64,000 nucleotides of DNA from Acidobacteriota bacterium (GTDB lineage: Bacteria; Acidobacteriota; UBA890; WLXD01): positions 224,001-288,000 of the forward strand of contig CAXWPH010000011.1 in assembly GCA_963666055.2 (NCBI GenBank), written 5' to 3'. A program made the translations under genes and the position numbers. Positions 18,737-28,313 of this stretch are shown here, one piece after another. Every line of letters begins with the position of its first letter. Within the stretch, counting starts at the first letter, position 1. Under the pieces are notes generated by a model, which saw only the letters and a list, made by a program, of their open reading frames with translations, was not told the DNA's origin and made no database searches.

Positions 18737-19549
18737 TCAGTTGAGGCTAAAGGACTCGCCGAGGTAGATCTTGCGGACCTGCGGATCGCGCTCGAGATCT
18801 CCAGGGGCACCGGAGCGGAATATCTGGCCATCCGTGAGGATGTAGGCGCGATCGGTGATGCGCAGCGTCTCGCGCACGTTGTGATCGGTTACCAGCACGC
18901 CGATCCCGCGCATCCGCAGCTCGCGTACGAGCTTCTGGATATCGCTGATGGCTATCGGATCGATGCCCGTGAACGGCTCGTCAAGAAGCAGGAAGGACGG
19001 ATTGGTCGTCAGGGCACGAGCAATCTCGACCCGCCGGCGCTCGCCACCCGAAAGAGTGTAGGCTCGATGGTCTGCGAGATGGGTGAGCCCGAGATCGGCC
19101 AGCAACACCTTGCAACGGCGCTGGCGCTCCTGGCGGGTAAGTCGCAGGCCCTCGAGGATCGCCATGAGGTTTTCCTCTACGGTGAGGCGTCGGAACACGG
19201 ACGGCTCCTGCGGCAGGTACGAGATCCCATGGCGACGCGCCCGGATGTACATAGGCTCGCGGGTAATCTCGATGTCAGCAGCGTAGATTCGTCCCTCGTC
19301 GGGACGAACCAGCCCGACCACCATGTAGAACGTGGTCGTCTTTCCGGCACCGTTGGGGCCGAGCAGGCCGACGACCTCACCCTGAGAGATGCTGAAGTTG
19401 ATCCCGTCGACCACCCGGCGACCGCCGTACGCCTTGACCAGACCGTCAACCCGTAGAGTCCGCGCCGGCAGGTCCGGCTCCGTGCCCGGCAGCGGCCCTG
19501 CACCGCTCACCGACACCGCCGGCGGCGAGAGATTCGATCGTTCATGCAT
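18737..19549 (-). CDS. lptB: LPS export ABC transporter ATP-binding protein LptB
   Basis: [54 protein letters not shown]; start uncertain (ATG 19549 or GTG 19510). Confidence 0.95.
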
Positions 19550-19555
19550 GCAGAT

Positions 19556-19585
19556 ATCGTACCAATGTGGCAGCAACTCGGTCAA
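19556..19585 (-). promoter_or_regulatory. Putative sigma70 promoter for the lptB-rpoN operon
   Basis: TTGACC-N18-TACGAT with extended -10 TG (TGGTACGAT). Confidence 0.5.
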
Positions 19586-19659
19586 CGTGACAAGAGACCG
19601 CCGATTCGTTGATTTTCTGTGTGTTTAAACGAACTTACGCTCGTCGATCGAATCTTTTG

Positions 19660-19815
19660 AGCTCCGATATCGGAGACTCGCATACCTGTGCTGCATACTC
19701 AGAGATGACTTATATTAAGTTATACAGATGTATATAGGCTAATACTATTGTTTAACAATGAATTAAAGATTTTAGTTGATTTATTATATGGTTTACTGCT
19801 TTTATAGTCACTGAG
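19660..19815. promoter_or_regulatory. AT-rich divergent control region with several palindromes
   Basis: 21 G+C in 19711-19810; palindromes CTCCGATATCGGAG (19662-75), ACTTA-tat-TAAGT (19708-20), TATACA-ga-TGTATA (19721-34), ATTGTT-t-AACAAT (19747-59). Confidence 0.6.
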
Positions 19816-19848: not shown

Positions 19849-20289
19849 ATGAAGCTCGGACAGATACTTCTATTCCGCAAGCTGATCGGGCGCGATCAGC
19901 TTCGTGAAGCGCTGCGGCGCCAACGCGCTACGGGTCGCCCAGTCGGCGAGATCCTGCTGCGTATGGGCGTAATCTCCCGCGCCAATATCGTCGAAGCGCT
20001 GCTCGCACAGCCGAAAGCGTCGGTGAACGCCGCCGCGTTGGCGAAGGTGAGTGCAGAGGTCGTTCATGCAGTTCCACGTCCCCTAGCAGAACGGCACTGC
20101 TGCCTCGGGCTGGTACGCAGCGACGGGCATCTGGTACTTGCAATGGTGGACCCTCTGGATCAGTCGGTGATCGCCGAGGTCGAGGCGGCAACGCAGCTCT
20201 GCGTCCTACCCGTAGCAGCATCTGGCGGTGATCTACGGGACGCAATCGCAACCAAGTACACGAGCTCGCAAGCGTGCGGCGCAGACTAG
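19849..20289 (+). CDS. Stand-alone MshEN (GspE/PilB N-terminal) domain protein, putative c-di-GMP receptor
   Basis: KLGQILL..KLI....L..AL..Q and PVGEILL..GVI....I..AL..Q tandem motifs plus LAMVDPLD; no ATPase domain. Confidence 0.85.
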   Translation: MKLGQILLFRKLIGRDQLREALRRQRATGRPVGEILLRMGVISRANIVEALLAQPKASVNAAALAKVSAEVVHAVPRPLAERHCCLGLVRSDGHLVLAMVDPLDQSVIAEVEAATQLCVLPVAASGGDLRDAIATKYTSSQACGAD

Positions 20290-20314
20290 GCACCTCCCGG
20301 GGCTGAGGCCGACA

Positions 20315-22462
20315 ATGCGCACCGACAGCATCCAAACGGACGCGGCTGAGCCTGACGGAGCCCTGGCGGAAGCGCTACAGCGGCTCGACATCGCCGTACA
20401 AACAAGCCGCATGTACCCCGCATCGGCGCCGACGGTCGTACAGTCCGTCGAAGTGGCTCATGCTTCGCTGGTGGCCGCGATAGGCGACGAGCCGGTTTCA
20501 CTCCAGATCCGACCCCAAGAGATCTCGTGGGTCGACCGCCTCACCAAGGAGACTCAATCCGCCATTCTCGAGCGCCTCGCAGAACAGCTTCACCGGCGGC
20601 ACGTTGCACGCCTCACTCTAGGCCCCGGCCTGTCTCTGGAGTCGGTCCTGACGCTGATTGGCGCCCTGGCGCAACGGGAATTCGAGCATAACGACGACGC
20701 CCTGTTGCTCGGAACGATCCCTGGGATCCGCGCGGATCCGCTGGAGCTGCAGGGCTTGGTCGACGGAGGCTCGCAACGCTTCGACCCGGACGACGTCTGG
20801 GGCCAGATCCTGGCTGAGTTCGGCAGCGGCACCGACGATAGCCCCGACTGGGAAGGCATCGCTTTGGATGCAGAGCGTGCGCGGGGCTTTCTCCGGTGGG
20901 CTCTGGATCCCGAGCATCAGCCGGCCGCGATGGCTCACCATTCCCAGACAGACGGTTTCACGCTGCTCGTCGAGCAGATCGCCGGGCGCGCGCCTCAGGT
21001 CGAGAACCTCATCGAAACGCTGGTCGAGGCCTCCACAAGCCTGTTCGACGAGCTCGACCTAGAGGCCTGGATCGACATCCTGACCGACCCGTTGCCGCTG
21101 CAGACTGACGAAGCGAGCGCCCCAGTCGATCTCACGAAACGCCTCGCGAAAGCACTCTCCAGCGGTCAAGTGATGCGCCTAGTGAACTACACCATGAGCT
21201 CGCGGTCGCGAGCTACGCCGCGACTCTACAAGTTCCTGTCGCGGGTCGTTGCCAGCCGCCCAGAGCGATCGGAGATCGCCAACCGTGCGGTACAGATGAC
21301 CAACAGCTCTCCGGTCGAGCTCGCCAAGGCATGGCCCGATCTAATCGAGGTCATGACAGGCGAGAACCCGGATCCTTTCCTGCACCGCGACTATCGAGCG
21401 TTGCTGGAGGACGACTCTGAGATCGGCAAGTCGGCATGGAACAGCGCCAAGGTCCGGGCGCGCTTCGGCGAGCTGGACGGCGACTCCCTGCGTGTACGAA
21501 AGACGCGGATCGCCCACTCGTTGTTGGTGAGCAATCGCGAGTCCCGCTTCTACGAGCACCTGGTGGATGCCCTCGGGAGCTCCCTCGAGACCATCGTGCG
21601 AATGGGCGAGCTGACGCTGCTGGAGGAGATCCTGCTCACGCTGGCGCAACATATCAGTGATGCCGACCGACCCGGCGCAGAGCGCCAGCTAGCCCATCAA
21701 GCGCTGCTTGGCATGCAACAGCGGGAGCTCATCGTGCTGCTCGTCCAGCGCCTCGCCCGGGCCGGCGGGGACGGCTTCCACGCCCTCTGGAGAATAGTGG
21801 AGCATCTGGGACAGCAGTTCCTGCCCGAATTGCTCCAGGCGCTTGCGACAACTAGGTCGCCCTCATACCGGCACCATCTACTACGCATCCTGCGAGGAGT
21901 CAGCGAGCTGCCGCTAGAGGAGTTCGGAGAGTCGCTCAACGACCGCCGCACACCGTATGTACGGGATTTCGTGTGGTTGCTGGCGGAGCTGCGCCGGCCG
22001 GAGCTGGCCCCGCTGCTGCAGGCTGCGGCAACCCACGCCGATGCCAAAGTCCGCAGCGAGGCGCTCGGCGGCTTCGCCTTCCTGTCCGACGAGCCATCGG
22101 AGCTTGCACTCCTTGAAGCCCTCGCAGACACCTCTCTCGAGGTGCGCGTGGCAGCGTTGCGGGCGTTCCGACAACGGTTCGCGAGCCGCTCGCAAGAGCG
22201 CCTGCTGGGCTATTTGTCGCTGCCCAACTGGAACGGCGAAAATACGCGGCTGATTGCCGCAGCCCTCAGTGTGCTCGGTCAGATCGGCGACGAAGCGGCT
22301 CTGGCGGCCATCGTGCCGTTGGCGCGGCGGACTTGGATATTCCGACGGCGTAGACGCACGGTGACCCAGGCGGCTATCGGCGCGGTGCAGAGCATCAACC
22401 AACGTGCGCAGCAGCGGAGCGCAGCAGCGCCACAACCGCAGGAAACTACCCGTGCCGCCTGA
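20315..22462 (+). CDS. HEAT-repeat protein with an uncharacterised N-terminal domain
   Basis: C-terminal HEAT/PBS-like repeats (HADAKVRSEAL, DTSLEVRVAAL); N-terminal YP-containing domain homologous to that of the downstream gene; ATG 20315 chosen. Confidence 0.8.
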   Translation: MRTDSIQTDAAEPDGALAEALQRLDIAVQTSRMYPASAPTVVQSVEVAHASLVAAIGDEPVSLQIRPQEISWVDRLTKETQSAILERLAEQLHRRHVARLTLGPGLSLESVLTLIGALAQREFEHNDDALLLGTIPGIRADPLELQGLVDGGSQRFDPDDVWGQILAEFGSGTDDSPDWEGIALDAERARGFLRWALDPEHQPAAMAHHSQTDGFTLLVEQIAGRAPQVENLIETLVEASTSLFDELDLEAWIDILTDPLPLQTDEASAPVDLTKRLAKALSSGQVMRLVNYTMSSRSRATPRLYKFLSRVVASRPERSEIANRAVQMTNSSPVELAKAWPDLIEVMTGENPDPFLHRDYRALLEDDSEIGKSAWNSAKVRARFGELDGDSLRVRKTRIAHSLLVSNRESRFYEHLVDALGSSLETIVRMGELTLLEEILLTLAQHISDADRPGAERQLAHQALLGMQQRELIVLLVQRLARAGGDGFHALWRIVEHLGQQFLPELLQALATTRSPSYRHHLLRILRGVSELPLEEFGESLNDRRTPYVRDFVWLLAELRRPELAPLLQAAATHADAKVRSEALGGFAFLSDEPSELALLEALADTSLEVRVAALRAFRQRFASRSQERLLGYLSLPNWNGENTRLIAAALSVLGQIGDEAALAAIVPLARRTWIFRRRRRTVTQAAIGAVQSINQRAQQRSAAAPQPQETTRAA

Positions 22463-23822
22463 GCGCTGTTCCCGAGAAGAGGTTCTGATAGATCTCGGCC
22501 GACATCTGCTGTGCGCCCAGCAGAGCCAAGCCATCTACCCAACAAACCACCCGCGCGCGGTCACCGCGCTCCGCGACCTTTACCTTCGTACGGTTGAGTT
22601 GCTGACCGAAGAGGGTGATCTGCGGTTCGCGCTGGCCGACCGCACGTTCATCTTCGACAACGAGGTCCTGCCGATCAACGGCGAGGTACTCGAAGGATTG
22701 GCGGAGCTGTTCTGTCGACGGGGCATCGGCCGCATGGCAGTGTCACGCGGGCTACGCCGGTGGGAGATTACGTCCCTTGTGCAGGCACTCAACGCGCAGA
22801 CCGAAGCCGACGAAGGCATCGAAGCTCTCCTTGCACGGGAGGGCGTCCAGCACGTCGAGGCAGCGCCACTAACCGGCCGAACCGGTGACCCGCGCGGTGG
22901 GTCGGCATCGAGCGGCCCGACGTTGTCGCGGGCCTGGGAGGTCTACTCGGCCAGCCTGGAGAACATGCGCCAGCTCAAGAGCCGCCTCAGCGACGGTATC
23001 GACGCCGACGCGATTGCCCAGGCTGGCTGTCTGGCCGGTGACTTGGTCGACGTCGTGCAAGCGCAGCCACAAGCGTTCTCGCTGCTGTACGCACTCAAGA
23101 ACCACGACGACTATTCGTACACGCACTCCCTGAACGTGGCGATGCTCTCCTTGACGATCGCCCGGTGGCTGGAGCTGCCGCACGAGATGCTCACGCAAGT
23201 CGCCCTCGCAGCTATTCTGCACGACATCGGCAAGGTGATGGTGCCCGACGGCGTGCTCAACAAGCCGGGAAAGCTAACCGACGAAGAGTGGGCGGTCATG
23301 CAGCGCCACGGCGACGACGGAGCGCGCCTGTTGCTCGAATCGCCGGTCAACGATCTGGTCTTCGTGGTTGCCTACGAGCACCAGCTGGCCTACGACGAGC
23401 GGCACACCGACTTCGGCCGGTGGCCGCTGCACCTGGTATCCGAGCTGGTGTGCCTAGCCGATGTATACGACGCGCTGCGGTCGGTTCGACCGTACCGCGA
23501 CTCGCTGCCACCCGACGTCGCCATGAGAATCATGGAGGAGGACGCCGAGACTAAGTTCGATGCCGACTTGTTCGCGGGATTCCGGCGCATGCTGGGCTAC
23601 TATCCTCCCGGAACTTGCTTGAGGCTCAGCGATGGTCGCACGGCGGTCGCGCGCACCACCAACCTCCTCGATCCGGAGCACCCGCGAGTGCTGGTTGTCC
23701 GCACCGTCGACGGCGACGAGATAGAGCCGCCGGAGGCTCTCGACCTGGCGCAAGCCGAGATCGACGTTGAGGAGGTCGCGGACCCGGAGCTCCTAGACAT
23801 CGACCCCGTCGACTATCTCTGA
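22452..23822 (+). CDS. HD-GYP-like (HD-domain) phosphohydrolase, atypical
   Basis: HDDYSYTHSLNV, LHDIGK, LNKPGKLTDEEW..MQRH, ADVYDAL...RPY; GTG 22452 overlaps the upstream gene's end, with AGGA upstream. Confidence 0.88.
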   Translation: MPPERCSREEVLIDLGRHLLCAQQSQAIYPTNHPRAVTALRDLYLRTVELLTEEGDLRFALADRTFIFDNEVLPINGEVLEGLAELFCRRGIGRMAVSRGLRRWEITSLVQALNAQTEADEGIEALLAREGVQHVEAAPLTGRTGDPRGGSASSGPTLSRAWEVYSASLENMRQLKSRLSDGIDADAIAQAGCLAGDLVDVVQAQPQAFSLLYALKNHDDYSYTHSLNVAMLSLTIARWLELPHEMLTQVALAAILHDIGKVMVPDGVLNKPGKLTDEEWAVMQRHGDDGARLLLESPVNDLVFVVAYEHQLAYDERHTDFGRWPLHLVSELVCLADVYDALRSVRPYRDSLPPDVAMRIMEEDAETKFDADLFAGFRRMLGYYPPGTCLRLSDGRTAVARTTNLLDPEHPRVLVVRTVDGDEIEPPEALDLAQAEIDVEEVADPELLDIDPVDYL

Positions 23823-23834
23823 CGTACCGGCCTG

Positions 23835-26141
23835 CTACGGACTCTGCACTTCCTCGCGCGGCACCGGGATGGTCTGAGTCCTGCCATCCTCGGTCGACTC
23901 GATGACAACCTCGTCGGTCTCGTAAACGACGCGCAAGGCGTCCCGACTCTTGTACTCGATGCCTCGATAGGCGAAGCGGGCGGGCACGGCAGGCGTTCCC
24001 CGTAGAAGTAACTCGCCGCTTTCCATGTTGTAGGTAAGCTCGTTTCCGCTTGCCTCCGCCTGGGTATCGCGGAACTGCACCGCGTCCTCGGCGACGACCT
24101 CGCTCCAGCCGCCTTCCTCACTGACCTCCACCCGGAGCTTGTCGGCCTCGATGATACGAGAGCGTTGGCGCATGCTGGCGGCACCACCGAGGCGCAGCTG
24201 CATACCGTCTTGCTCGACGAGAAGGTTGGCTGCGCTCACCGTGGCGTACTCGGGCTCCCCATCCTCGCCGGTCGCCGCTACCGCTACCAGCTCGACCGCG
24301 CCCTGGGCCCGCAGTCGCCCCGGATTCGACTCCAATCGCAGCTCGGCGGTTTCCAACGATTGTGATTCCCAGATGACCTGGACGTTGTCGCGCAGGATCA
24401 GCACCCCTTCGACATCGAGCTCGGCTGACTCGGCGGTCATCTCGACGGCCGGGGTATCGCCGAACAGCACGCTGGCCGCGTCGAGATACTCGTCGGCCAC
24501 GTCGGCGCGGATCGACCCAGTCGCCTCGATGCCCTCGTCCGGTCGCCACGTCATCTCGTCGGCGTACAGATCTACACCACTCGCCGACAGGACCGGGGCG
24601 GGGTCGCCATGTAGTCTCCAGGCGCCCGAGTCCGCGGTATACGAGGCGGCCCCCGCCGACATAGCGCGACCGTCAGCCTCGAACTCGACTCCATCCGGCC
24701 ATTCTGCCTCGTCAAGCGCCCCCTCGACCCAACTGGCAATCAGCTGCTCTCCGGTGAAAATGAGCGAAGCCTCGGAGCTCGACATCGCCAGATCTGCCAC
24801 GACGTTGCCGGCCGCTTCGACGCTCTGCAGGCCAGCTTCGCCAGCGGTGAGCATGAGCTCCGACGCAGTAAGCTCGCGCAAGCTCTCGGCGTCGCCGCGC
24901 GCGCGCCATGCAACGCCGCGGCGCGCCTCGACCGACTGACGGTCGCCATCGGGCCGGAGCTCGATCTCCCGCGCCTCCAGCCGCCCAAAGCCAGGCAACG
25001 TGAGTCGGGAACCCAGCCGTCCACTGATCGCTACGAGGGCGGCCAACTCACCGGTGGCAAATTCGATCCGGATGGTAGCTCCACGAAGGAGACGCACGTC
25101 GCCATCATCGCCGCCGCCTGTCGGGCTCGTGTCGCCAGCGGCTGGGCCGATATCGGCCACACCAGCGATGTCGGTGCTGTCGGTGCCAGCGACATCGACA
25201 GAGGCTACTTCGGAGTCCATCCCTGGCAGCCTGGTCACCTCGTCGTCAAGAGGTTCGACCTGCTCGCCGTCGCTTTCCAGCGCGGCCTGCGCGGCAGCCG
25301 CCGGATTGTCCGCGCGCGGGAAAAACCTTACCCGCGCCCCGCCCGTGGCCTCGATACGGCGCAGCTCGCTGACTCCTGATCCGACGTCGAGAACGATCTC
25401 GTCTGCGCGAACCGAGGCCTGGTTCATCTCCAGCTCGGCGGTTCCCTGCAGGCGCACCTGATCTCCGCCCGGCCGTACCCGCATCTCCTCGGCACTACCG
25501 CGCAGACCTGCCGGCATGGCGCCCTCACCGGCACCACGCCGCAGGGTCAAATCGCCCCACATCCGCAGCTCCTCTGCCACCACGTTCTGTCCGCTGGTAA
25601 CGTCGCCGGCCGTCTGGAAGTGAAGACAGTCCCCGCGCGACTCCATGCCCGCATAGAACAATGTGCTGCGGTTGCAGTTGCTGACCACACCGCTCACCAC
25701 GTCGTAATTGAGCCGCCGTGTTTCGAAGTACCCGTTGTTCGGCAACTCGGCGCGCACGTTACCGATGATGCGAATTTCGTCGAAGTCATCACCGTCCCCG
25801 CTTGTTCGCATCGTGTCGCCAACCACAACGACGTCCTTGTCGGGCCCGTCTTTGCCGAAGATACGCATGCGCACGCCAGCCCACGTGTTCCAGCCGTCGG
25901 AAAAATCGAGCAGCTCGTCGGCAGCAATCTCGTAGAGCTTGCGATTGCCGCGGAACTTGACGAAGTTGATCTTCTCGGTGTGCGACTCGACGCTACGATC
26001 GCCCTCCGGCATTGCCGGAACCTCAACGCGGTCGGAGGCGCGCTCGAGTCCCGCTGCCGGCTGCCAGCTGAGATACACCACCAACGACACCGCGACTGCG
26101 AGGCTTGCGAACGCGAGGCGGAGAAAGGCCGTGACTCGCAT
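23835..26141 (-). CDS. lptC: Fused LptC/LptA-like (multi-OstA beta-jellyroll) LPS transport periplasmic protein
   Basis: N-terminal TM followed by repeated beta-strand OstA-like units (A.G.V, ADE/ADK..Y); synteny with lptB and DUF507 genes. Confidence 0.72.
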   Translation of the reverse strand: MRVTAFLRLAFASLAVAVSLVVYLSWQPAAGLERASDRVEVPAMPEGDRSVESHTEKINFVKFRGNRKLYEIAADELLDFSDGWNTWAGVRMRIFGKDGPDKDVVVVGDTMRTSGDGDDFDEIRIIGNVRAELPNNGYFETRRLNYDVVSGVVSNCNRSTLFYAGMESRGDCLHFQTAGDVTSGQNVVAEELRMWGDLTLRRGAGEGAMPAGLRGSAEEMRVRPGGDQVRLQGTAELEMNQASVRADEIVLDVGSGVSELRRIEATGGARVRFFPRADNPAAAAQAALESDGEQVEPLDDEVTRLPGMDSEVASVDVAGTDSTDIAGVADIGPAAGDTSPTGGGDDGDVRLLRGATIRIEFATGELAALVAISGRLGSRLTLPGFGRLEAREIELRPDGDRQSVEARRGVAWRARGDAESLRELTASELMLTAGEAGLQSVEAAGNVVADLAMSSSEASLIFTGEQLIASWVEGALDEAEWPDGVEFEADGRAMSAGAASYTADSGAWRLHGDPAPVLSASGVDLYADEMTWRPDEGIEATGSIRADVADEYLDAASVLFGDTPAVEMTAESAELDVEGVLILRDNVQVIWESQSLETAELRLESNPGRLRAQGAVELVAVAATGEDGEPEYATVSAANLLVEQDGMQLRLGGAASMRQRSRIIEADKLRVEVSEEGGWSEVVAEDAVQFRDTQAEASGNELTYNMESGELLLRGTPAVPARFAYRGIEYKSRDALRVVYETDEVVIESTEDGRTQTIPVPREEVQSP

Positions 26142-26182: not shown

Positions 26183-26464
26183 TCAGCGGACGGGACGGTG
26201 CCGGTCGAATTCCTCGCGGTAGTACTGCCGGTAGAGAATCTCCCATTCCCTTCCCCCCTCGGGAATGTCGCGCTTCTGCGAGGCGATCTTCTGCTGCACC
26301 TTACGGTCGATGTACTCGTCGCGCCGAAGCTCCTCCTGGAAGATCTCGACGATCGCCAGCCGTACGGTGTTCGGCTCGCGGCGCAGCTCCACGGACTCAT
26401 CCTCCCCTAGTGCATCGACCAGGAGGCGTGACAAATGGTTGACCTTGGCGCGAGATAAACGCAT
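26183..26464 (-). CDS. DUF507 family protein
   Basis: MRLSRAKVNHLS...IDRKVQQKIASQKRDIPEGGREWEILYRQYY..E pattern. Confidence 0.8.
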   Translation of the reverse strand: MRLSRAKVNHLSRLLVDALGEDESVELRREPNTVRLAIVEIFQEELRRDEYIDRKVQQKIASQKRDIPEGGREWEILYRQYYREEFDRHRPVR

Positions 26465-26469
26465 ATCGA

Positions 26470-26748
26470 TCAGAGGATGATGTTGCGTTCCCTGGCGAGC
26501 TTCGCCTTGATCACCTTGAACATCTCGTGAAGCTCGACATCGGCGCGCCGGATCTGGTCATTGTAGGTGCGCATGATTTCGCGTACCTCGTCGTTGAGAC
26601 GATCCTCGACCATCAACTCGTCGACGACGATCCCGCTCATGCGGCCTTCTGTTTCTGCGGCGTTTTCGACGCGGATCAACCCGAGTTTGCCGAGGTCGCG
26701 GACGACTCGGAAGGCGATCACGTCGATCTGCTCCTGAGTCATGCGCAT
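26470..26748 (-). CDS. DUF507 family protein
   Basis: ELMVEDRLNDEVREIM...MFKVIKAKLARERNIIL pattern. Confidence 0.8.
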   Translation of the reverse strand: MRMTQEQIDVIAFRVVRDLGKLGLIRVENAAETEGRMSGIVVDELMVEDRLNDEVREIMRTYNDQIRRADVELHEMFKVIKAKLARERNIIL

Positions 26749-26867: not shown

Positions 26868-28313
26868 TTACTCGATGCGTACCTTCGCCTCCAACGGAAC
26901 GGCGCCATCATCCAGACGGAGGCGCAGCACGTAGTCGCCGGCGACCCCTGCTGGCATCATTGCTTGAACGATCAGGGGGCCCGCCACCGCGTTGGTGCCC
27001 CAGTCGGCGCTCACCTCTTCGAGCTCAACCTCGGCGCCGGCCGAGTCGACTAGCGTCATGCGCACGGTTTCCGCATCAGGGACCTTGCCCCGAAGCCAGG
27101 TGAGGGCAGAGAAGCTGTCGCCCGCAATCAACCGCGGCTCGGCTCCGGAGATGATTCCCACCTCGCCCTCGCGTAACCGAGTCACTGACCGACCAATGAT
27201 CAGCGGGCTGGCAGCGCTACCGCTGTCGGAGATCTCCACCTCTCCATCCCACGTGAACGCCGTCTCCGAGAGCGGATCGAGCACGCGTACGTCTAGCGTG
27301 TATCCGCCTGCTTCCGCCCGCAATAGCAGTGCCGTGCGCAGCGACGCGGCCCCGATGCGCGCCACATCCGCCGCTGGCAAATCGACGGTCCATTCTTGCG
27401 TTCCACGCAACTCATCGGTACCGCCCAGACGCAGCAGCGATGCGTCAATCCGGAGCGTCGCCCGCAGACCATCACCGACAGGTTCGAACAACAGCCCCCG
27501 CAGAGGAATCTCGATTGGGATCACCAGGGCGCCCGCCACCCCGTTGATACCCCAGGTCTCGGCCAGCACGGTGAGCGGCTCGGTTCGCGCCACCGTCTCG
27601 CGAATCGCTACCCTCGTGCTGGCTGCTCCCGCACCGGGCCGGAACTCAGTCACGGTATCTACTAGAGCGCCCTCGTTGGTGAACAAGAACGCGGTTCGCA
27701 GGTCGGTCGGCATACCGCCGACGCCGAGCATGCCCGGATCGCAGAGCTCGAACTGGCCGATACGCGTCTCGACGAAGACCACGTGGAACTCGCCCATCTG
27801 CGACCGAAAGGCCATGTTGTTGGTGCGGTAGGTCCACCACTCCCCCTCCGGATACGAGCAGCGGCCGAAACCCCGCAAGTCCCTCCGGCGCATGCCTCCG
27901 GTGGGTCGGCCGAGGATAACCCAAACTCGGCCACGATCGGACCTCCAGCCACGAGGGAACCCGCGAAACCGCTTGTTCACGAAGGCTACCCGTCGGTAGA
28001 ACTCCTCCTGGAACGCGTGCCCCTCGTCGCGAGTATCAAGGTCGCGCCGGTCCCAGAACCACTTTATGAACTGACGGCGGAGCTCGTCGGTCTTCTGGTC
28101 CTTCCAGGTGTCGTGCTCGTAGTCCAGGATGAGGTATTCGACCGGGCCCCCAGCCCAGTCTTTGAGTGGCCGCTCCTCCTCATAGAAGCGTCGTGCCGCC
28201 TCCATGGTCTTGGGGAACTCGTCCTTCTGTGCAAACGCTGGACGGGTGGTGCCGATCGCTACGATCGGCAGAACAAGGACGATGAGGGCGCGAAATCGGT
28301 CAGGCAAAACCAT
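26868..28313 (-). CDS. GWxTD-domain secreted protein
   Basis: Signal peptide; FIKWFW..RD, EEFYRRVAFVN..F, GWRSDRGRVWVILGRP (GWxTD variant); beta-rich C-terminus. Confidence 0.85.
   Translation of the reverse strand: MVLPDRFRALIVLVLPIVAIGTTRPAFAQKDEFPKTMEAARRFYEEERPLKDWAGGPVEYLILDYEHDTWKDQKTDELRRQFIKWFWDRRDLDTRDEGHAFQEEFYRRVAFVNKRFRGFPRGWRSDRGRVWVILGRPTGGMRRRDLRGFGRCSYPEGEWWTYRTNNMAFRSQMGEFHVVFVETRIGQFELCDPGMLGVGGMPTDLRTAFLFTNEGALVDTVTEFRPGAGAASTRVAIRETVARTEPLTVLAETWGINGVAGALVIPIEIPLRGLLFEPVGDGLRATLRIDASLLRLGGTDELRGTQEWTVDLPAADVARIGAASLRTALLLRAEAGGYTLDVRVLDPLSETAFTWDGEVEISDSGSAASPLIIGRSVTRLREGEVGIISGAEPRLIAGDSFSALTWLRGKVPDAETVRMTLVDSAGAEVELEEVSADWGTNAVAGPLIVQAMMPAGVAGDYVLRLRLDDGAVPLEAKVRIE

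Follow-up and report, generated by a model that had tools for sequence, protein, structure and literature searches.

A candidate two-layer cyclic di-GMP signalling operon of Acidobacteriota that combines a HEAT/HD-GYP pair with a stand-alone MshEN protein

A stretch of 64,000 nucleotides from an Acidobacteriota genome (GTDB lineage Bacteria; Acidobacteriota; UBA890; WLXD01; assembly GCA_963666055.2, contig CAXWPH010000011.1, positions 224,001 to 288,000 of the forward strand), here called the window, carries three consecutive genes for a stand-alone MshEN protein, a HEAT-repeat protein and an atypical HD-GYP protein. It is proposed, with a probability of about 0.5, that these genes form one co-regulated, two-layer signalling operon for cyclic di-GMP (c-di-GMP), in which an old HEAT and HD-GYP pair has been joined by a freed MshEN head, and which likely tunes pilus or secretion motors. 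The observations behind this proposal are the order of the genes, an N-terminal domain common to the HEAT and HD-GYP proteins, the joint inheritance and duplication of this pair, the orthology of MshEN and the purifying selection on it, and an AT-rich tract upstream. Because this tract is common to the three genes and most c-di-GMP genes of the genome, the unit is likely part of a signalling circuit.

The core of the unit is the HEAT and HD-GYP pair, which recurs in several phyla without MshEN. Both proteins start with a homologous domain of ~135 residues (blastp E 1e-7; hhalign 99.0%, E 6e-18, 135 columns), for which the two structure models give, at high confidence, a similar helix-helix-strands layout. 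None of 26 such N-domains scores above any Pfam family cut-off (PF11871, or DUF3391, matches 0/26 at E<=1), a PDB sequence search with the domain gave no match and an Atlas search returned nothing at >=0.9. The VIA alignment of the HD-GYP protein to 3TM8 begins at residue 34, but with a root-mean-square deviation of 8.6, and an Atlas score of 0.75 is a lead only; both fold searches mainly picked up the HD and HEAT parts and say little about the N-domain. A profile search with the domain retrieved 7485 representatives at E<=0.001, and 81 of the 301 genomes of the phylum contain it. The top 150 representatives include 76 N-domain-HEAT proteins, 33 cases of the domain alone, 14 GGDEF-AAA-N-N-HEAT proteins and 11 N-domain-HD proteins, and a Pfam scan of 55 of the 150, chosen mostly for unusual length, found nine proteins with GGDEF, AAA_16 and HEAT_2 and one PAS histidine kinase. 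In P0064, the N-domain is joined to a PAS histidine kinase, and P0039, P0042, P0049 and others are GGDEF-AAA_16-N-N-HEAT proteins of ~1400 aa with two tandem N-domain copies; at L040:8928-13430, a gene of this architecture lies directly upstream of a HEAT/HD-GYP pair. These tandem copies were considered as a fusion argument but did not sort into a HEAT-type and an HD-type, and therefore provide no clean one. The HEAT part of the partner protein is a solenoid of tandem helical hairpins, with HEAT_2 above its cut-off and with model and fold matches over residues ~370-705; a homolog search with this protein alone returned 8 proteins only. At its C-terminus (22330-22360), a conserved basic/aromatic patch could bind membrane or nucleic acid.

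The recurrence of the pair was followed outside the order and outside the phylum. Among 18 of the best-scoring loci outside the order, 16 consist of an N-domain gene directly followed by an N-domain HD-GYP gene, 15 of these with a HEAT match, and two are HEAT only; an MshEN match was found at 0/18 of these loci from other orders of the phylum. Of 80 named loci listed, 67 are HD-GYPs without the N-domain and 13 carry N-domain proteins. Two of the latter belong to a genome already counted; of the 11 further loci, nine are clean pairs, from Acidobacteriota, Omnitrophota, Thermodesulfobacteriota, Myxococcota, Bacillota and Gemmatimonadota, one is cut by a contig end, one is frameshifted, and MshEN lies beside 0/11. 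Trees of 48 HEAT and HD-GYP pairs are congruent (Spearman 0.81; identical nearest neighbour in 34/48), and in an old tandem duplication the two genes were doubled as a unit, which together amount to joint inheritance of the pair. Tandem-duplicated pairs occur in other Acidobacteriota (L053, L055, L056, L057, L133, L134, L135), where the copies form old separate clades. In one other family, N-domain HEAT genes lack an adjacent HD-GYP gene (L060 and, in tandem, L063). No description of the pair or of the three-gene unit was found in the open-access literature, although the supplements of an HD-GYP survey and of the MshEN paper may list such architectures; the available text of that survey does not describe the N-domain found in the HD-GYP and HEAT proteins (bioRxiv 2021.11.05.467447).

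The third gene has a different history. Among 11 genomes of the own family, the order MshEN-HEAT-HD-GYP is present in 7 (4 genera; in G002 with frameshifts); in G008, a contig end cuts the locus after MshEN and the beginning of the HEAT gene, and G010 (77% complete) lacks the locus. In G003, an inversion of ~235 bp (L022:8749-8983), either a real event or an assembly artefact, holds the AT tract and the first 31 mshEN codons. At the same lptA-lptB site of the sister family, two genes stand ahead of the pair, one for an MshEN-ATPase-zinc-ribbon protein of 675 aa and one for a J-domain protein; across 15 genomes this arrangement is complete in 5, partial in 3, empty in 1 and not seen in 4, and the J gene alone lies between lptA and lptB in 2 (G011 and G021). 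Orphan MshEN-ATPase genes whose products carry a double zinc ribbon at the C-terminus, each with a J-domain gene behind it, were found at L027:3376-6256, L034:308-3166 and L036:3340-6290. As the C-terminal part of the J-domain protein is confined to the sister family (4/301 phylum genomes), a loss of the J gene by the own family is not claimed. A midpoint-rooted tree built from 35 MshEN domains unites the 8 stand-alone proteins in a clade whose sister group is formed by 5 full ATPases linked to lptB (support 100/98). Approximately unbiased (AU) tests, run with two long-branch rows omitted, reject trees that place the stand-alone proteins with PilB (p 0.0002) and trees that place them with other short MshENs (p 0.0004). 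A T2SSE ATPase domain is present in the sister-family ortholog and absent from the MshEN protein studied here, which stops after residue 146. Truncation of a PilB/GspE-type ATPase, freeing its head, is the simplest reading of these sequences and a likely one, because the neighbouring clades mostly bear ATPases and because the ATPase ortholog occurs in 0/11 own-family genomes (best matches, at 45-51% identity, are paralogs) vs 7/15 sister-family genomes. The sister family also has a separate clade of MshEN proteins of ~200 aa that show RLG/KLG motifs but no ATPase (L076, L079, L083).

The original prediction had described an MshEN without an ATPase and without an adjacent pilus gene. This absence of an ATPase or pilus link holds for the own family only, as the sister-family MshEN heads a full ATPase. 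The stop itself is no assembly slip, since contigs of two public runs, one possibly equal to the source sample, cover the whole 64-kb stretch in a single piece with 0 and 1 differences. Could mshEN then be what is left of the deleted ATPase, in decay and retained merely through its position? The stand-alone branches are much longer than those of the sister family, the Arg of motif II is lost and the gene is broken in G003. However, 8 genomes from 5 genera keep an open frame of 140-158 aa that stops where the domain ends, and within the genus the ratio of nonsynonymous to synonymous substitution rates (dN/dS) is 0.05-0.16 for MshEN, compared with 0.18-0.23 for HEAT, 0.13-0.34 for HD-GYP and 0.03-0.09 for lptB, at dS up to ~2. 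The gene is kept under purifying selection, and decay is a very improbable explanation.

A further alternative is a single, self-contained complex of the three proteins MshEN, HEAT and HD-GYP; once bound to its ligand, MshEN would act via the HEAT scaffold to switch the phosphodiesterase. This alternative draws on the order kept in 7 genomes of 4 genera, on the joint loss of the three genes in G009, on the retention of MshEN when its ATPase went, and on MXAN_2807 of Myxococcus xanthus, in which MshEN and HD-GYP occur together (PMC8844925). The latter is one polypeptide, whereas the locus studied here and its relatives have separate open reading frames and a HEAT partner. Such a complex is nevertheless rather unlikely, as the pair stands without MshEN in all five second copies of the sister family, at the 18/18 loci of other orders and at the 11/11 further named loci, as MshEN is broken in G003, and as the AT tract links the unit to distant genes. 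The module of the original prediction thus survives as an arrangement of the own family, and the proposed neighbourhood search recovered HEAT and HD-GYP together in several phyla, but MshEN beside them at this locus only. For the operon reading preferred here, MshEN would be an addition to an older pair and not a needed subunit of it.

With regard to its ligand, the MshEN protein probably binds c-di-GMP, as judged from its motifs. It scores 44.1 bits against the Pfam family MshEN (cut-off 23.1) and 55.8 bits against the NCBIfam c-di-GMP motif NF053729 (cut-off 38), and it matches the known structures of PilB (E 9e-11) and MshEN (E 9e-9). Two 24-residue motifs are separated by a 5-residue spacer and, mapped by motif on the published domain (PMC5013675), keep Q25, Q54, G4, G33 and the triads L18/L22/V32 and L3/I47/L51. 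The consensus Arg at the start of each motif is replaced (K2, P31), and so is the first turn Gly (K11), in line with the KLG and PVG starts noticed before; at motif II, the sister-family ATPases keep RLG, which the own family lost. The doubt about ligand binding that had been attached to these deviations is overstated for KLG: GSPII-B of PilF, which has Lys and Leu in motifs I and II, respectively, binds with a dissociation constant of 6 nM, and a Lys start is also reported for other tight binders (PMC11731258). For motif II, the Pro counts against binding. A PLG start occurs in PilF GSPII-C, a binding domain with three motifs (PMC11731258), and because of this number the example does not pin down the motif that binds. 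Like MshE (V. cholerae, 5HTL), PilF GSPII-B (T. thermophilus, 8PDK), which shares the Lys motif start, and PilB (M. xanthus, 3JC8), the protein has a full two-subdomain MshEN of ~140 residues with tandem motifs and both Gln; it differs from these receptors by the missing ATPase, the Pro for Arg in motif II and a neighbourhood of HEAT and HD-GYP genes instead of a pilus operon.

The HD-GYP protein consists of the N-domain, two long helices, an HD-GYP fold and a small C-terminal beta domain; the fold was modelled with a predicted local distance difference test score (pLDDT) of 90.2, has 4MCW, 9RBZ, 3TM8 and 4R8Z as top matches, and scores 67.2 bits for HD_5 (cut-off 27.2; HEAT_2 in the partner 35.2, cut-off 27.7). 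Mapped by motif and not by superposition, 6/7 metal ligands (H, HD, H, HH, D) are kept and Q311 replaces the second His of HH, which is H277 of PmGH. The PmGH positions H189, H221, D222, H250, H276, D305, D183, K225 and D308 are kept, with Tyr at E185, as are the substrate motifs K271-P-G273 and R346-P-Y-R349 (RxYR). His-Gln for His-His was found in all 6 family members aligned and in 25/100 parsed homologs (120 examined), and the GYP of HHExxDGxGYP is missing in 17/17 aligned proteins of the order, being present in distant homologs, e.g. P0248-P0253. The H277A exchange removed essentially all activity of PmGH (PMC4159591); catalysis may therefore well be weakened or absent here, which would leave a weak enzyme or a receptor. 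Its assigned role as eraser is consequently uncertain.

In its strongest form, this doubt would make the own-family HD-GYP catalytically dead and a second c-di-GMP receptor, so that the unit would be an effector of two sensors and a scaffold. The His-Gln in all aligned family members and the H277A result point in this direction, as do the missing GYP loop next to a kept guanine-binding RxYR and KPG, the seven other HD_5 proteins and two EAL proteins that could handle turnover, and the precedent of DvhD from Desulfovibrio vulgaris, an HD-GYP fold with altered metal ligands acting as a c-di-GMP receptor (9RBZ; PMC13090378). DvhD, however, is a membrane receptor reported to have lost both HD and HH, whereas the protein here is soluble, is without one His only and conserves the other six ligand positions together with D219, K261 and D340; in addition, RpfG without one His is reported active (bioRxiv 2021.11.05.467447) and PmGH GYP mutants stay active (PMC4159591). 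A dead enzyme is thus doubtful, and slow cleavage fits the operon reading. Compared with PmGH (4MCW), the Bd1817/DUF3391 family (3TM8) and PA4781 (4R8Z), the protein lacks GYP, has Gln for the second His of HH and carries an N-domain, unmatched by Pfam, that it shares with the neighbouring HEAT protein. A unit that handles 3'3'-cyclic GMP-AMP (3'3'-cGAMP) instead of c-di-GMP is highly unlikely: some HD-GYP and MshEN domains accept cGAMP (PMC5013675; bioRxiv 2021.11.05.467447) and two cyclases of the own genome have Asn after GHxxG, but RPYR is a c-di-GMP-type motif, which cGAMP-preferring enzymes end with Gln or Asn (bioRxiv 2021.11.05.467447).

The evidence for co-regulation comes from the AT-rich tract. 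In the own genome (95.7% complete), crude gene calls gave 4612 genes and 2786 operon leaders, and a tract was defined as an 80-bp upstream window with a G+C content (GC) <=0.33. This applies to 51/2786 leaders, with 126/2786 reaching 0.40. The c-di-GMP turnover genes of the genome comprise 5 GGDEF, 2 EAL (both in GGDEF proteins) and 8 HD_5 genes in 11 operons; with the studied unit excluded, 8/10 other turnover operons have a tract (Fisher p 3e-13 vs 51/2786), including those of 5/5 GGDEF genes; one of the eight is counted because the tract lies before the gene that opens the operon. Among pilus genes, pilB, pilT, pilC and pilS are present in the genome, and tracts lie ahead of 3/6 secretion ATPases (pilB, gspE, one pilT), 2/3 PilZ genes (one measured within 1 kb, without a gene call) and pilA (added afterwards). 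On sequence grounds, the tract marks a promoter class tied to c-di-GMP turnover and pilus/secretion genes. Because the link had been noticed before the threshold was fixed, the tract was also checked in other genomes. It precedes mshEN in 6/7 other family members, and among GGDEF genes in three other genera 13/14 reach GC <=0.40 and 5/14 <=0.33, vs 1/6 at <=0.40 in a sister-family genome; this check used 700-bp windows, left out G004 as well as a single gene from each of G005 and G011, and has a roughly known background. The upstream tract, by linking the unit to the cyclase and pilus genes of the genome, weakens the claim that the unit is self-contained.

Several features of these tracts stand on their own. 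Their GC in the own genome (G000) ranges from 0.14 to 0.33, and examples lie at C3:39834, C3:167340, C10:99425, C14:424824 and C15:967435, with further ones at C15:581593, C15:2187259, C15:2190324, C15:2196777 and C9:46542. Tracts also occur before bactofilin, hipAB-like, gapA, SpoIIE and PadR-like genes. As candidate regulators, sigma-54 left no pattern in 15 upstream regions and the IHF consensus was observed once vs 0.44 expected; a search of the own genome for the MucR, H-NS and Lsr2 families gave no match. Two sigma-70-like sites were found, both on the minus strand. A similar situation is known from Sinorhizobium fredii, where low-GC upstream regions mark scattered c-di-GMP genes, the diguanylate cyclase promoters silenced by MucR1 (PMC8546604); here, no MucR, H-NS or Lsr2 match was found, and the tracts are sharper and also precede pilus genes.

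Taken together, the operon reading can be worded as follows. One putative AT-binding regulator would switch the unit jointly with cyclase, phosphodiesterase and pilus/secretion motor genes. The HEAT protein would dock the HD-GYP protein via the common N-domain and thereby set its activity or place, much as the N-domain and HEAT repeats are built into GGDEF-ATPase proteins. The HD-GYP protein would bind c-di-GMP and cleave it slowly, at most to pGpG, and free MshEN, acting in trans, would bind c-di-GMP and most likely either target the motor platform of PilB/GspE or serve as a buffer. The unit would thereby likely regulate the activity of type IV pili or of type II secretion. A number of points weigh against this reading. 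The GC threshold was set after the c-di-GMP link had been noticed, only 15/44 tracts precede c-di-GMP or pilus genes while about two thirds precede unrelated genes, and the tract upstream regions contain no convincing shared k-mer motif. The link between unit and pili is drawn solely from the origin of MshEN and the AT tract. In most of the family, MshEN motif II has Pro for the consensus Arg and the first turn Gly is replaced, and an engineered PilF GSPII-A with Ser in place of the Arg of motif II no longer bound (PMC12002112); to this the H277A result for the HD-GYP partner is added. The G003 inversion breaks MshEN while HEAT and HD-GYP remain intact, in G009 lptA adjoins lptB and the whole unit is gone, and the pair is without MshEN everywhere outside this one locus. 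Finally, neighbours can be co-inherited without physical contact. A bolder extension appears speculative and rather improbable: across many phyla, the N-domain would be a general module by which cyclases, HD-GYP proteins and kinases dock onto HEAT scaffolds, the own-family motor gene would have been cut back to a free c-di-GMP switch for such a scaffold, and the c-di-GMP/pilus network would be gated by an AT-tract-binding global regulator other than H-NS, MucR and Lsr2.

The layout of the locus is given in Table 1. The three plus-strand genes are closely packed and opposite in strand to their flanks, as had been described, with a gap of 25 bp between mshEN and HEAT and an overlap of 11 bp between HEAT and HD-GYP. 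They are inserted between lptC/A and lptB in an lpt-rpoN-hpf-hprK-rapZ-PTS cluster (PTS, phosphotransferase system). The tract is indeed the only strongly AT-rich one in the window, where the next-lowest 90-bp window has a GC of 0.47. Codon-position GC of the three genes resembles that of the neighbours, so a recent horizontal gain is not indicated, and the close homologs carry an Acidobacteriota label in their sources. No RNA data set was listed as containing the stretch, which carries no information on its expression. Upstream of lptB, a block (19537-19590) kept in 5/5 genus members overlaps a minus-strand sigma-70-like site; the two suggest that lptB-rpoN may have its own promoter. Conserved across the order is a block of the 768-aa lptC/lptA fusion (23835-26141), a DUF507 split into two genes (26183-26748) and a GWxTD protein (26868-28313).

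Table 1. Features of the three-gene locus and its flanks; positions refer to the window.
Feature	Position	Strand	Description
mshEN open reading frame	19849-20289	+	146 aa, stand-alone MshEN/GSPII protein, predicted c-di-GMP receptor
HEAT-repeat gene	20315-22462	+	715 aa; N-domain, helical middle, HEAT solenoid, basic C-terminal patch
Atypical HD-GYP gene	22452-23822	+	456 aa, GTG start
Uncatalogued N-domain, HEAT copy	20351-20764	+	alpha/beta, YP motif, residues ~13-150
Uncatalogued N-domain, HD-GYP copy	22467-22874	+	residues ~6-140
AT-rich tract	19708-19797		GC 0.20, upstream of mshEN; no strand
lptB, left flank	18737-19585	-	outside unit; beyond it rpoN, hpf, hprK, rapZ, PTS genes
lptC/lptA fusion, right flank	23835-26141	-	outside unit; convergent with HD-GYP gene, 12 bp gap

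Each named part of the unit is a member or a derivative of a known c-di-GMP family, and the new elements are the pairing domain, the HEAT partner, the freed MshEN head at the lpt site and the tract-marked regulon, for none of which a report was found in the open-access literature. The common N-terminal domain, the His-to-Gln exchange in HD-GYP and the identity of MshEN as a truncated ATPase ortholog go beyond what the original prediction contained. Among c-di-GMP hydrolases, the HD-GYP enzymes are understood least, and the organisation of local c-di-GMP signalling is still an open question. Here, a HEAT partner with a common domain, which is also found in cyclases and one kinase, offers a concrete and widespread candidate scaffold that consists, together with its HD-GYP protein, of two soluble proteins. 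The locus further illustrates how a free receptor may arise from a motor ATPase, the intact form of which persists in the sister family. The AT tracts provide a ready list of candidate regulon members and may serve as bait for a new global regulator in Acidobacteriota.

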